The position numbers were made by a program, and so were the translations under genes. From positions 9,056,001 to 9,120,000 of the forward strand of contig OZ244999.1 of the NCBI GenBank assembly GCA_965223265.1: a DNA stretch of 64,000 nucleotides. The letters are read 5' to 3'. Below, one piece after another: positions 58,651 to 62,851 of this stretch; position 1 is the first letter of the stretch, and the number at the start of each line of letters is the position of its first letter. Source of the stretch: Planctomycetota bacterium. Lineage in GTDB: Bacteria > Planctomycetota > UBA8108 > SXIK01. Below the pieces are notes generated by a model. The model searched no databases. It was not told where the DNA came from and saw only the letters and a program-made list of their open reading frames with translations.

Positions 58651-59244
58651 TCACTCGAGATCGAGGAACTCACGCTTGAGTGCGTTCCAGCGCTTCTGGG
58701 ATTTCTTGCCCCACTTCTCGAACTTACGGTCGATCTTTGCGACCTTACGTTCCTGCCACAACCGACCAGAGCTTTTGCCATAGAACTTGTCGGCGACGCA
58801 AATGATCTTCTCCTCGAGCGAGACCGGACACAGGTCGCGAGCAGGTAATGGTAGACCCTTGTTCTCGATCTCCTCGGCGGTCAAGCCGCTGCCGGTATGG
58901 CGTTCGCAGACGAGCGCGTGCTTTGGCAGCCCTTCCTTCTCGAGGGTCTTTCGTCCAAGAACTCCGTGCATGAGATATGGCTCGGAGCCATGACAGCCGA
59001 TTTCGGGCGCATCGCACTCACGGATGCCAATGTCGTGCAGCAGCGCAGCCTCACGGATGAATTCAAGGTCGAGCTCGGCGTCGGGTTCGACCTTACTGTA
59101 CCAGTGCGCGATGGAGAGTGCTTTCTGAGCCACCAACACGGAGTGGACAACGATGATTTCGTGCGCTTCGGAATCGACCGGATAGTACTTTGCAAGAATC
59201 GCCAATGCATCGATCGACAACGTGACTTTGCCTCTCTTTCCCAT
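58651..59244 (-). CDS. HD-domain phosphohydrolase (HDIG-like)
   Basis: HSVLVA, ALLHDIG, HG..G, CERHTG, EEKIICVADKF. Confidence 0.88.
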   Translation of the reverse strand: MGKRGKVTLSIDALAILAKYYPVDSEAHEIIVVHSVLVAQKALSIAHWYSKVEPDAELDLEFIREAALLHDIGIRECDAPEIGCHGSEPYLMHGVLGRKTLEKEGLPKHALVCERHTGSGLTAEEIENKGLPLPARDLCPVSLEEKIICVADKFYGKSSGRLWQERKVAKIDRKFEKWGKKSQKRWNALKREFLDLE

Positions 59245-59296: not shown

Positions 59297-61201
59297 TCAA
59301 GCGCTCTCGGTCGGGAGCTCCGAATCGAACGGGTCGGATAGCGAGATCCGCCGCAGCGGCGTCAGCTCGACCTCATTCCAGTTGACGCGAAGTGATTGCG
59401 AATCGCTTCGCGTCTTAATGTAGTGAGCCCGCACTCTCGCCCGAGTGTCTGGCGGTGGTGCACTCGTCGCGAGTGCAACCGCGGCCGGTGAAATGAGAGA
59501 GCGGATGTAGTCCTCCCGTTCGAGCTGTCTTTGGTATCCGGACCCACCCAGTTCGTGGAAGCGTAGGTCGATCTTCCAAGTGTTGAAGTAGAGTCTGCGG
59601 AATTTTGCAAAGTCTCCGGCCTGCAGATTCCTCGACCGGATGAGGCGCCTCAGTTTTCGGCGCCGGGTGAATGGTGATCGATGGACAAGATCACCGAGAT
59701 CCCTCGCTCTCGCAGCCGCTTCGACGCCTGCCGACTGCAATAGTTTGCCCCAACTGAAGAAGTCCTTCCAGTTCGTTTCCGACAGCACTGCTTGGTCGAG
59801 AACCGACTTCTTCGCCACCCAATCGAGTGAGTCAGCAAGGCTTTGCTGTTGATTCTCGAGTCTCTCGAGCGTCTCCTCCCACAGATCTATGATCTCGCGG
59901 TGTCGGATGCGGCCCTGCGGTCGACCATCGAAAAAAGTCTTGACGCGTCTTAGGTAGGAACGCTGGAGATTCATTGCTGTTGACGTCTGACCGCTCCGCA
60001 GACGAACCTCTTTCCACGGTCCACCGCGCGCGATTTCACGGAACGCCATGACGGGATTCTTCAAGCGAAGCTCAGCAAACGTCTCTCCTGCTTCGATCAT
60101 CTCCAGGAGGAGAGCAGTAACGCCGACTTTCAGTAGATTCGGGATGTCGGAGAGGTTGGAATCGCCGATCGTGATGGAGAGTTTCTTTTGCTCATCGAAG
60201 AGCGCCGCCGGCGAGTAGAGGAACCCTTTCAGGTCGAACATGGTCTTCGACCGCCCGAACATGATGATCTTCGCTACGCTTGACGTCAGCCGGCTGCGTT
60301 GCGACAGCTCAAAGGTTTCACTCTGAAAATCGAGACGTCCGGCTCCCGTATAGATCTGTCGACTGACGAGAAATGACGTCAAGTCCTTGACGAAAGGCCC
60401 AAAAGCGAGGCGGCTCAAGAGTAACGAATAGAGCTGCACTGGCGGATAGACGATGACCAGGAAGAAGAGCACAGGAATGGCACGAATCGACTCAGCAGTT
60501 CGCGTGCGACCGTCGCGAACCCAAAGATAAATGTGTTCTGCGGCGCGCCGCAGCGGCGGTAGTAGGCGCCCGATCACCAGCGTGGCGGCGCCGAATAGGA
60601 GAACGCAAAGCAGCGTGAAAAACGTCGGAAAGAGAAGCAAAAGGAAGATCGGGGCCGCGAGAATGAGGTACCGCAAGGCCGACCGCGGTGCTCGATGAGA
60701 GACGAGGTAGTTTTCGTGGCAGCCGAATCCGGTCCCAAAGCGATCGACGTTGTTCTTACCGAAGAACAGACGCCCCGGCCAACCGGCTTTCGTCAGCGCT
60801 TCGGCGGACTTGCGGCTGACGTCATCGAGGATTGTGTCGAACGCTTTGGAGTAGCAAACGACGTCCCACGGTGTTCGACACTCGGGTGTTGCTACTTCGA
60901 AGATCGGTGTGTCTTCCTGGCGACGCAGAAAGATTTCCAGGTGCACCTGGCCGCCGTTCTCGAGGAAATACCCGCCCTTCAGACCACTTGCAGGTGCCGA
61001 TTTGCGTCCCTCCAAAAGGCTGCTGTAGAGAACCTTCTCGAGCAGCTCGAAGGGCGCTTGCCTCTGCGGCGTCGCATTCGCGTCTAAATCGTCCGGGACC
61101 TCCGAGCCGACCGCGGGTTCGTAGATGACCGCGACCTCCGTCTCCAACCCGAAAATCCCCCTGCGTTCGTCGCTGGCGGGAAGGGGTTCGCGAGGGGCCA
61201 T
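59297..61201 (-). CDS. PafA/Dop-family (Pup ligase-like) protein with a transmembrane insertion
   Basis: IFGLETE, FLENGG, EVATPEC, KNNVD..G..FGCHENYLV, FLVSRQIYTGAG, LSQR, GDSNLS, LKVGVT, DWVAKK, IDLRFH, PPPDTRA..R, VNWN, LSDPF. Confidence 0.9.
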   Translation of the reverse strand: MAPREPLPASDERRGIFGLETEVAVIYEPAVGSEVPDDLDANATPQRQAPFELLEKVLYSSLLEGRKSAPASGLKGGYFLENGGQVHLEIFLRRQEDTPIFEVATPECRTPWDVVCYSKAFDTILDDVSRKSAEALTKAGWPGRLFFGKNNVDRFGTGFGCHENYLVSHRAPRSALRYLILAAPIFLLLLFPTFFTLLCVLLFGAATLVIGRLLPPLRRAAEHIYLWVRDGRTRTAESIRAIPVLFFLVIVYPPVQLYSLLLSRLAFGPFVKDLTSFLVSRQIYTGAGRLDFQSETFELSQRSRLTSSVAKIIMFGRSKTMFDLKGFLYSPAALFDEQKKLSITIGDSNLSDIPNLLKVGVTALLLEMIEAGETFAELRLKNPVMAFREIARGGPWKEVRLRSGQTSTAMNLQRSYLRRVKTFFDGRPQGRIRHREIIDLWEETLERLENQQQSLADSLDWVAKKSVLDQAVLSETNWKDFFSWGKLLQSAGVEAAARARDLGDLVHRSPFTRRRKLRRLIRSRNLQAGDFAKFRRLYFNTWKIDLRFHELGGSGYQRQLEREDYIRSLISPAAVALATSAPPPDTRARVRAHYIKTRSDSQSLRVNWNEVELTPLRRISLSDPFDSELPTESA

Positions 61202-61424
61202 TGGGTGCGCGCGTTCGAAGATCGTCCTGTTAGGTTCAGGAGCTCAGTCAGGAAGGCAGTCGCCGGGCGTCGTGCCTTCGAGAGGAAGTCGGAGGCCGCG
61301 ACAGGTCCCGGTGCTCACGCGCCATGGGCACACGGGTAACCGCGAGCGATTCGCCGCGCCAGTCACGGCGTTCTCTCTTCACATGGCGACCCGGCTCCTC
61401 TGAGGAGCGCGAACTTGGCCTCAA

Positions 61425-61613
61425 TCACTCAGCGCCGCGTCCGACGTCATAAGCGTAGACGTATGCAGCGGAGTGTTGGTCTGCGTCGGCGAGCATGGCG
61501 CGAATCAGATCACGTCGGGTGCGAACGCCACGGTCGATGACCGAAGCGGGAATTCCGACACTTTCCGCGGACTCTGTGTCCGCAGAACGAACATCCTCGA
61601 CTCTGCCTGCCAT
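61425..61613 (-). CDS. Putative Pup-like modifier protein (62 aa, C-terminal GAE)
   Basis: MAGRVEDVRSADTESAESVGIPASVIDRGVRTRRDLIRAMLADADQHSAAYVYAYDVGRGAE; Pup-like size, C-terminal helix resembling Pup, terminal Glu; upstream of the PafA-like gene on the same strand. Confidence 0.6.
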   Translation of the reverse strand: MAGRVEDVRSADTESAESVGIPASVIDRGVRTRRDLIRAMLADADQHSAAYVYAYDVGRGAE

Positions 61614-61981
61614 AGAATCGCTCGGCGAAACGTTCAATTTCACAAAAAACTCCGAAACGGTTAAGATCCTGCCACAGGTGATTATCTCCAGCAGACCACT
61701 CACGCACAAGGTTTTTCGCGGCCGCACAGAAGGCTGCACGCGCCACATCGACTGAAAAACGCGTCGTCACACCCGAATCGTTCCGCTGCGAACACGCGAG
61801 AATCCGCGAGATTCTCCGGTGTGGCCACTGAGCACGAGCCGTGGTCGGGAGATGGAGACCCCAAGTTGTCGAGTTCGAGAACGCCTAGTAAATCACGAAC
61901 ATTCAGGTGGTCAAGAGCCCAGTAGGTCGATTCTTGGCTTTTGAGGGTTGAGGGCTTTCCTGCGGGAGACGGAGGATCCGG

Positions 61982-62851
61982 ATGCGAGAACGTTGTAGTG
62001 CCGTTGCCCGCGAGCTCCAGGACACCATCACCGAGGAGCTCGAGCGCCTCGATGGGAGCCGTTTTGAGGAGGACCTGTGGGATCGAAGCGGCGGCGGCGG
62101 CGGACGTACCCGCGTGCTGACGGGCGGCGGACTCTTCGAGCGCGCAGGCGTCAATTACTCGTCGGTGCACGGCGAGCTTTCGGACGAGTTCGCCCCCCAA
62201 CTGGCCGGCTCCGGGAAGGAGTTCTTCGCCACCGGGATCTCTCTCGTCCTCCATCCGTCGAACCCTCAAGTCCCCACGGTGCATGCGAACTTTCGATACA
62301 TCGAGAGAGGCGACGCATGGTGGTTTGGGGGCGGCGCTGATCTCACGCCGTACGTCTTTTACGAGGAGGACCCTTGCCATTTCCACTCGACGTGGAAACA
62401 GGTCTGCGACCGCCACGACCCCGAACATTACCCGAGATTCAAGAAGTGGTGCGACGAGTACTTCTTTTTGCCACATCGCGGTGAGTCGCGCGGCGTCGGT
62501 GGAATTTTTTTCGACAACCTGACTGGAGACCGCGATCGGCTGTTCGAATTCTGGAGCGATGCCGGGAGCGCGTTCTTGGACTCTTACGTGCCCATCGTCG
62601 AGCGCCGGCGGCATCTGGAACACAATGAGTCGCAGCGGCGATATCAACTGCTCCGACGTGGCCGCTACGTCGAGTTTAATCTCATGTACGACCGTGGGAC
62701 GATTTTCGGCCTCAAAACGCGAGGTCGGATCGAATCGATCCTAATGTCTCTGCCGCCTCTCGTCGCGTGGGAGTACGACGTGAAGTGGCCACCGGCTAGC
62801 GCTGAGGCGGAGCTTGAAGCCGTGCTGCGTGAGCCCCGCGACTGGGTGTAG
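61982..62851 (+). CDS. hemF: Oxygen-dependent coproporphyrinogen III oxidase
   Basis: GGGGRTRV, FERAGVNYS, HPSNPQVPTVHANFRY, WWFGGGADLTP, CDEYF, RGVGGIFFD, RRGRYVEFNL, ESILMSLP. Confidence 0.97.
   Translation: MRERCSAVARELQDTITEELERLDGSRFEEDLWDRSGGGGGRTRVLTGGGLFERAGVNYSSVHGELSDEFAPQLAGSGKEFFATGISLVLHPSNPQVPTVHANFRYIERGDAWWFGGGADLTPYVFYEEDPCHFHSTWKQVCDRHDPEHYPRFKKWCDEYFFLPHRGESRGVGGIFFDNLTGDRDRLFEFWSDAGSAFLDSYVPIVERRRHLEHNESQRRYQLLRRGRYVEFNLMYDRGTIFGLKTRGRIESILMSLPPLVAWEYDVKWPPASAEAELEAVLREPRDWV

Follow-up and report, generated by a model that had tools for sequence, protein, structure and literature searches.

A candidate two-gene, proteasome-independent Pup-type module with a putatively membrane-anchored PafA/Dop-family ligase in Planctomycetota

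The locus and its conserved small gene

We have analysed a stretch of 64,000 nucleotides (nt) from the genome of a Planctomycetota bacterium (GenBank assembly GCA_965223265.1, contig OZ244999.1, positions 9,056,001 to 9,120,000 of the forward strand), which we refer to as "the window" and whose own numbering is used throughout. Two neighbouring genes on its minus strand are the subject of this work: a small gene that encodes a 62-amino acid (aa) protein with a terminal glutamate, referred to as "the tag", and a gene that encodes an enzyme of the PafA/Dop family, referred to as "the ligase". A previous reading of the same DNA, made from the letters alone (hereafter the sequence-only reading), had described the 62-aa open reading frame (ORF) as lying upstream of, and co-oriented with, the PafA/Dop-family gene, and had interpreted the pair as a minimal two-gene tagging system that acts at the membrane. 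The coordinates and the description of the pair have proved correct, and our comparative analysis supports the interpretation in silico, i.e. through the occurrence of the tag gene in 28 of 31 loci, the terminal Glu of all 146 tag relatives, the presence in the genome of a single enzyme and of neither a proteasome nor Mpa, and the predicted docking of the two proteins. The features of the pair are the following:

61425..61613, minus strand: tag gene, 62 aa plus stop codon; acidic, Lys-free, with the C-terminal end V-G-R-G-A-E
61202..61424, minus strand: spacer of 223 nt between the two co-oriented genes, the tag gene being upstream
59297..61201, minus strand: ligase gene; its 634-aa product belongs to the PafA/Dop (Pup_ligase) family and has a glutamine-synthetase-like fold
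61136..61150, minus strand: GhExE nucleotide-binding motif, G18-L-E20-T-E22, located by alignment with PafAs and with the 48-member family
60935..60937, minus strand: Glu89, equivalent by alignment to the catalytic Asp of PafA
60401..60694, minus strand: putative membrane insert, residues ~170-267, from alignment, hydropathy and the AlphaFold2 model
59579..59782, minus strand: second insert of ~68 aa, residues 474-541 of the C-terminal domain, absent from canonical PafA by alignment

The frame of the tag is open over 61425..61748 on the minus strand, and the ATG at 61613 yields the 62-aa protein, an identical sequence of which is already present as a called protein (P0140) in a public protein collection. 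The only terminator-like sites of the minus strand, at 60950 and 60392, are both located within the ligase gene, and none was found in the 223-nt spacer. The automated call of the ligase (P0001, 616 aa) lacks the first 18 codons and begins at a TTG within the G-L-E-T-E motif; since this start cuts a conserved motif, and since residues 14-18 are conserved in the family, we prefer the ATG at 61201, which gives the 634-aa protein.

The comparison of 32 ligase loci, the host locus included, has revealed that the tag gene is conserved: apart from locus L021, which has only 110 nt of upstream sequence and was not assessable, 28 of the remaining 31 loci have an ORF of the tag type, i.e. one that ends in G-G-E, G-A-E, D-G-E or H-G-E, upstream of the ligase and on the same strand, and in the related loci 18 to 380 nt separate its stop codon from the point at which the match to the ligase begins; a conserved small upstream ORF with a G-x-[EQ]-type end is what the sequence-only reading had suggested looking for. 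At three loci (L009, L014 and L018) no upstream tag-type ORF was found beside the ligase. The genome of the first of these (G374) carries a 45-aa tag with the end V-P-K-G-A-E on another contig (L036, 1498..1635, minus strand), so that the linkage of tag and ligase is usual, but not obligatory. Ends of the pattern G[GA]?E close 28 of the 206 ORFs of at least 30 aa that occur within 700 nt upstream of the ligase on its own strand in the 32 loci, against a background of 9 of 1972 ORFs elsewhere in the same loci, in all six frames.

The 28 locus tags align over their last ~30 residues, with the consensus I-x-x-D-A-x-x-x-P-x-x-Y-V-x-x-x-x-V-P-G-G-G-E; in the tag of the window, this conserved part corresponds approximately to residues 32-62, with the signature Y(-12), [LV](-11), V(-6), G(-3), [GA](-2) and E(-1). 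When a profile of the 28 tags was run against 1.84 billion representative proteins (E up to 0.001), it retrieved 146 relatives of 45-101 aa (median 58), all of which end in Glu (121 in GGE, 22 in GAE, two in DGE and one in HGE) and none in Gln; Gly(-3) is kept in 143 of them, Tyr(-12) in 133, Val(-6) in 121 and Pro(-5) in 119. In the host genome, the only significant site of the profile is the 62-aa ORF itself (E 4e-10; next best 0.04). Judged by this sequence conservation, the 62-aa ORF represents a genuine gene that has been conserved, and no feature of it is more constrained than the free terminal Glu. The uniform Glu terminus, together with the lack of a Dop paralogue in the host genome, supports the earlier suggestion that a tag that already ends in Glu would have no need of Dop. 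The named database members of the tag family are all "hypothetical" or "uncharacterized", one of them coming from Candidatus Uabimicrobium amorphum; the clusters of ligase relatives carry no protein names, and a search of the ESM Atlas with the tag gave no usable match.

Longer tags occur in one planctomycete family (f26): those of loci L020, L024, L025 and L033, and protein P0227, are ~100 aa long, with a conserved N-terminal motif, an uncharged hydrophobic segment of ~20 residues and the usual P-G-G-G-E end. Other loci of this family have short tags of 51-55 aa; in this GC-rich DNA, the start codons of long and short tags alike are uncertain. Judging from the hydrophobic segment, the long tags may themselves be membrane-anchored.

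The ligase, its inserts and the predicted complex

The ligase exceeds the cut-off of the Pup_ligase model (PF03136; 25 bits) by far, with 266.3 bits and E 6.8e-79, and its AlphaFold2 model, built from an alignment of 48 family members, has a mean predicted local distance difference test score (pLDDT) of 91.6 and a predicted template modelling score of 0.91. The closest folds retrieved by Foldseek are those of Dop (4b0r, E 2.5e-25, target template modelling score, TM, 0.79) and of the PafA-Pup complex (4bjr, E 5.8e-25, target TM 0.72-0.74), followed by the YbdK-type (GCS2) glutamate-cysteine ligases (1tt4, E 2.8e-4; 1r8g, E 6.1e-4), and then by glutathione and glutamine synthetases. The carboxylate-amine ligase fold is thus common to the ligase, the GCS2/YbdK-type gamma-glutamyl ligases and glutamine synthetase, but the latter enzymes are far more distant and join small molecules, not a protein tag.

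The ligase was aligned (MAFFT) with six canonical PafAs, with which it shares the G-L-E-T-E motif, the A-T-P-E-C strand, the H-E-N-Y, S-Q-R and G-D-S-N motifs and, close to the C-terminus, the P-P-x-x-T-R-A-R block. Invariant in the 48 family members are G18, E20, T21, E22, E89, E102, H162, E163, R281, Q301, R302, D323, K325, D347 and S348; the positions of the active site are under purifying selection and therefore the enzyme is, as far as can be read from its sequence, very likely active. In comparison with the actinobacterial PafA-Pup pair, the fold, the GhExE, H-E-N-Y and G-D-S-N motifs and the P-P-x-x-T-R-A-R block are alike on the side of the enzyme, and the small size, the Gly-rich end and the terminal Glu are alike on the side of the tag, whose C-terminal half is predicted to bind the enzyme; the motif of Pup is given as a C-terminal Gly-Gly-Gln/Glu by Iyer et al. 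(2008). Unlike the actinobacterial PafA, the ligase has an insert of ~95 aa that is putatively embedded in the membrane, and a second insert of ~68 aa.

The first insert begins after H-E-N-Y-L-V (residue ~170), ends before the F-L-V-S-R-Q helix, and is missing from the six canonical PafAs. Its hydropathy reveals two hydrophobic stretches, residues 176-213 (38 residues) and 241-267 (27 residues), separated by an Arg-rich linker of about 26 residues (214-240), and the AlphaFold2 model has helices at residues 173-213, 215-230 and 234-265. The motif parse handled 41 of the 48 members; 31 of these show two uncharged runs with a net-positive linker between them (median 30 residues, with six K/R against one D/E), and the remaining ten have no second uncharged run at our crude threshold. 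Hydropathy and alignment agree with the earlier description of a PafA ligase with a transmembrane insert. Since both ends of the insert join a cytoplasmic fold, the number of membrane crossings should be even; the positive linker would then be cytoplasmic and each hydrophobic stretch would form a hairpin, with the second stretch, which seems too short for two full crossings, being perhaps re-entrant.

A related group of Pup_ligase proteins of 572-576 aa (P0064-P0066) has no membrane insert, and has the canonical catalytic Asp and an N-[ST]-R-D-E-P block; the group shares the ~68-aa insert of the C-terminal domain with the membrane clade, and has an N-terminal insert of its own. It may be intermediate between canonical PafA and the membrane clade.

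The complex of the ligase with the tag was predicted from a 48-row alignment of the former and a 28-row alignment of the latter. The interface score (ipSAE) is 0.83 in three runs, against 0.00 for the best of three controls; the mark set for this score is reached by 58 of 80 solved complexes and by 2 of 110 mismatched pairs, counts that are only rough here, because alignments of our own were used. The runs agree in at least 79% of their contacts, with a partner pLDDT of at least 60. The confident contacts of the predicted complex connect tag residues 32-58, i.e. the conserved part of the tag, with ligase residues 24-28, 97-100, 150-159, 466-471, 493-497 and 536-565; residues 493, 496-497 and 536-541, which belong to the second insert, are predicted to be among those that touch the tag.

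Genome context, neighbouring genes and known systems

The host genome consists of one contig of 9.18 Mb and is 91.65% complete. It contains one Pup_ligase gene, no match to the Proteasome model (PF00227), no match to Pup (PF05639) in six frames, and no match to the OB domain of Mpa/ARC (Prot_ATP_ID_OB_C, PF16450); with the Mpa/ARC model TIGR03689, the best match is limited to the AAA module and scores 146.6 bits (cut-off 504.75). The sequence-only reading had noted that ARC/Mpa, prcA/prcB and a second Dop/PafA paralogue are missing from the window and had proposed a search of the genome for proteasome and ARC genes; the search found none, and the statement holds genome-wide. In these respects the host differs from the Pup-proteasome system, having neither Dop, nor Mpa, nor a 20S proteasome, and in addition its tag is unmatched by the Pup models.

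Across 401 sampled Planctomycetota genomes (E up to 1e-20), the ligase is present in 33, distributed over 26 of 287 genera, including 10 of the 11 genomes of family f26. Of the 33, 32 have a single copy; the exception (G092) is the only sampled genome with two genes of the membrane type (contigs C337 and C583, E 2.6e-80 and 2.9e-74), which may stem from two organisms, since the bin has 8% contamination. PF00227 matches occur in 183 of the 401 genomes, but in neither the host genome nor two other genomes of its family, and in 18 of the 33 genomes that hold the ligase, mostly as one match each; the model also picks up HslV in control genomes, so that HslV and 20S are not told apart in these counts, and we base no conclusion on them outside the host genome.

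The pair is flanked by hemF and by an HD protein, as had been read from the sequence and as the Pfam and NCBIfam matches confirm:

58651..59244, minus strand: HD/HDIG protein, TIGR00295-like (below cut-off), downstream flank
61982..62851, plus strand: oxygen-dependent coproporphyrinogen oxidase (hemF), upstream flank, divergent

The all-against-all comparison of the ORFs that flank the ligase loci has found no third gene that is conserved beside the pair across lineages in the 32 loci: hemF occurs in four loci and the HD protein in two, and in other lineages the neighbours are a cobalamin adenosyltransferase, a DUF72 protein, a Sir2 protein or a divergent TPR-GAF protein. The HD/HDIG gene starts 52 nt past the stop codon of the ligase on the same strand, an arrangement that recurs only in the closest relative (L006); it is probably co-transcribed with the ligase here but, being common to two loci only, lies outside the conserved module and is not assigned to the system. 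The module is the tag-ligase pair alone.

A comparable arrangement is UBact, a Pup-like tag of some Gram-negative phyla, in which a small tag gene, with a terminal Glu or Gln after Gly, lies beside genes of the PafA/Dop family outside the actinobacteria; at these loci, two paralogues of PafA/Dop occur together with proteasome genes. The host genome, in contrast, has neither proteasome genes nor a second paralogue, and scans of Pfam and NCBIfam with the 28 locus tags gave no UBact match. The Dop system differs as well, since all tags of the present family end in Glu and leave nothing to deamidate.

The closest precedent is the computational prediction by Iyer, Burroughs and Aravind (2008; Biol Direct 3:45) of a membrane-associated Pup ligase in Rhodopirellula baltica and Plesiocystis pacifica, adjoined by an unannotated Pup gene and without linkage to proteasome genes; the sequence-only reading, too, had stated that PafA homologues with transmembrane segments had been noted computationally. 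Both systems consist of a PafA-family gene, whose product has its putative transmembrane insert right behind core strand 4, and of a small ORF next to it, which in their description measures 50-90 aa and has a G-[EQ] end; neither is linked to proteasome genes, and the role proposed for both is tagging at the cytoplasmic face of the membrane. The system of the window differs in the organism, in the end of the tag (G-A-E here, G-G-E there), and in having two hydrophobic stretches (38 and 27 residues) where they describe four segments. The architecture is therefore not new, having been predicted in 2008, and the pair is a further case of the predicted kind. A literature search, whose coverage left out most subscription journals, yielded no experiments on Pup-type systems that are membrane-anchored or come from planctomycetes.

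Readings of the pair

We consider it likely, with a probability of roughly two in three, that the pair is a two-gene module of the Pup type, i.e. a membrane-anchored, ATP-dependent ligase and its tag, which works independently of a proteasome and has no need of a deamidase. In this reading, the 62-aa protein would be a cytoplasmic tag with a variable N-terminal part, the conserved C-terminal 30 residues of which would dock in a groove of the C-terminal domain of the ligase; the hydrophobic insert, which departs from the fold and returns to it just behind the H-E-N-Y strand, in the sheet of the active site, would keep the ligase on the cytoplasmic side of the inner membrane. If the chemistry is analogous to that of PafA, ATP would serve to activate the terminal Glu at its side-chain carboxylate, and the tag would then be passed to an amine, most likely to Lys side chains of membrane or membrane-proximal proteins. 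No deamidase step would be needed, because every tag relative ends in Glu, and the mark could presumably not feed a proteasome, because the genome is without Dop, Mpa and 20S; it might instead be a regulatory or sorting signal, or hand its substrates to another machine.

Several observations weigh against this reading, the first group of which concerns the identity of the enzyme. The ligase scores 216.3 bits with the PafA equivalog model (TIGR03686), against a cut-off of 551.3 and against the 544-768 bits of canonical PafAs in the same NCBIfam library, and 186.9 bits with the Dop equivalog model (TIGR03688), against a cut-off of 492.3; among PDB sequences, it scores 138.9 bits with Dop and 120.3 bits with PafA. 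The enzyme is equidistant from PafA and Dop, by sequence and by fold, the best match among solved structures being Dop in both respects, by a small margin (4b0r, 138.9 bits, TM 0.79); this tie fits the work of Hecht et al. (2020), in which the planctomycete homologue, present in a single copy, was taken as the outgroup to the duplication that gave rise to PafA and Dop.

The active site adds a second group. The catalytic Asp of PafA (L-Y-L-D) aligns with Glu89 (V-H-L-E), a Glu that is invariant in the clade, and the distance from this position to the conserved Cys is 23 residues, against 17 in the PafAs. The alpha-loop, which according to Hecht et al. (2020) discriminates between the two enzymes and contains a Thr pair conserved in both, is without this pair in the ligase; in the same region, Lys replaces two Arg, and the N-T-R-D-E-P-H block reads F-D-L-K-G-F-L-Y. 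In its Glu in place of the catalytic Asp, its Arg-to-Lys changes and its missing Thr pair the enzyme thus departs from the actinobacterial PafA, and because of the Asp-to-Glu change and the altered alpha-loop its chemistry could differ from that of PafA. At the positions listed in Table 1 of Hecht et al. (2020), the ligase is PafA-like in the Leu before the catalytic position (Val in Dop), the hydrophobic residue after it, Ala104 and the G-D-S-N motif, but the alpha-loop as a whole is like neither enzyme. Five of the six PafAs have G-D-S-N and the sixth has G-D-S-S, against G-D-A-N in the Dop chains, so the earlier claim that G-L-E-T-E and G-D-S-N are PafA-like rather than Dop-like is right for G-D-S-N; in view of the tie in overall similarity and of the alpha-loop, however, the argument from motifs is weak. 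The context, with its single enzyme and its tags that all have a terminal Glu, is a better guide to the choice between ligase and hydrolase than the motifs.

The third group concerns the tag and its partners. In scans of the whole of Pfam and NCBIfam, which we take to contain a UBact model, none of the 28 locus tags matched a Pup or UBact model; among the matches listed for 140 tag relatives in the same libraries (25 of 33 families), none was to Pup, and each of these families is matched by a single relative, i.e. they are scattered chance matches; and a search of PDB chains with the tag-family profile found no Pup chain. The test by hidden Markov models that the sequence-only reading had proposed thus holds for the ligase, which matches Pup_ligase, but not for the tag. 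For comparison, an ORF of Rhodopirellula was recovered as a Pup orthologue with PSI-BLAST and HMMer by Iyer et al. (2008). The tag appears Pup-like in its size, position, terminus and predicted binding, whereas membership of the Pup family is not borne out by the models. The complex prediction that had been proposed as a further check succeeds in docking the conserved C-terminal half of the tag and in beating the controls, but the last four residues of the tag lie outside the confident contacts; moreover, the pass may reflect likeness to a known complex, because PafA-Pup has been solved (4bjr). The membrane insertion of the ligase is suggested by hydropathy only, and the membrane-protein gene that Iyer et al. 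(2008) report as linked to their pairs has no counterpart as a conserved neighbour in our 32 loci.

A possible, though rather doubtful, alternative is that the ligase is a single bifunctional enzyme, undifferentiated between the PafA and Dop types, that both attaches and removes the tag, the mark being reversible without a separate Dop. The equidistance of the enzyme from PafA and Dop, its single copy in 32 of the 33 genomes and the outgroup position of the single-copy planctomycete homologue are all in keeping with this idea, as is the conversion of Dop to a ligase by about 20 substitutions (Hecht et al. 2020). We have seen, however, no sequence feature of the ligase that demonstrates hydrolase activity, and the alpha-loop, which decides between the two activities, is like that of neither enzyme; such a dual activity would also add to the preferred reading, and not replace it.

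It seems unlikely to us that the tag is joined at the membrane not to a protein Lys but to the amine of a lipid or small molecule, such as a polyamine, an envelope precursor or the head group of an amino-lipid, and so becomes anchored to a lipid or to the envelope. The superfamily mostly couples glutamyl carboxylates to small amines, as do the next folds on the Foldseek list (YbdK-type 1tt4 and 1r8g, glutathione and glutamine synthetases), the membrane insert emerges beside the active-site sheet, the active-site residues differ from those of PafA, and the tags of some relatives bear a hydrophobic segment of their own; the known acceptors of PafA are lysines, however, and no gene of lipid metabolism is conserved beside the pair. 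Were the Glu of the tag joined to an amine-bearing lipid or envelope precursor, improbable as this is, the module would be a bacterial counterpart of Atg8 lipidation on a glutamine-synthetase fold, and the Asp-to-Glu and Arg-to-Lys changes, the new alpha-loop and the insert near the active-site sheet would be adaptations to a membrane-resident acceptor.

That the small protein is not transferred at all we regard as quite improbable; it would then only be processed, or the enzyme would be a membrane-bound glutamyl hydrolase or ligase that acts on another substrate and has the small protein as its regulator or chaperone. The failure of the Pup and UBact models to recognise the tag, the replaced catalytic Asp, the diverged alpha-loop and the terminal four residues that are not confidently placed in the complex would all agree with this reading, but the 146 relatives all end in Glu and 143 of them have Gly(-3), as is expected where a residue has to reach into an active site; the motifs for nucleotide binding are conserved as well, and a regulator would need no free terminal Glu. 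Lastly, the idea that the 62-aa frame is open merely by chance, the spacer being rich in GC, as the lack of Pfam and NCBIfam matches and of a strong Shine-Dalgarno-like sequence before its ATG might suggest, is refuted by its conservation, i.e. by its presence in 28 of 31 loci, where the background of such ends is 9 of 1972 ORFs, by a C-terminal signature that recurs in 146 relatives, and by the single significant site (E 4e-10; next 0.04) in the host genome.

To the architecture that was predicted in 2008, the present analysis adds the size of the tag family and its uniform Glu terminus, the failure of Pup and UBact models to detect it, the replacement of Asp by Glu and of Arg by Lys in the active site, a second insert that is predicted to contact the tag, the lack of a conserved third gene, and a docking prediction that passes its controls. 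If the preferred reading of a tag and a membrane-anchored ligase is right, a membrane-tethered, deamidase-free ligase with an orthogonal tag could serve for proximity labelling at membranes, a use for which PafA is already employed in PUP-IT. The clade of membrane-type ligases is not rare: it occurs in 33 of the 401 sampled genomes, and the tag family comprises 146 clusters at 50% identity. To our knowledge, the one function understood for pupylation is to lead to the proteasome of actinobacteria; a clade that has a tag and one putatively membrane-bound enzyme, but neither Dop, nor Mpa, nor 20S, asks what the role of a Pup-type mark is when the proteasome is taken away, and the pair is small enough to be rebuilt in E. 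coli, so that the question is directly testable.

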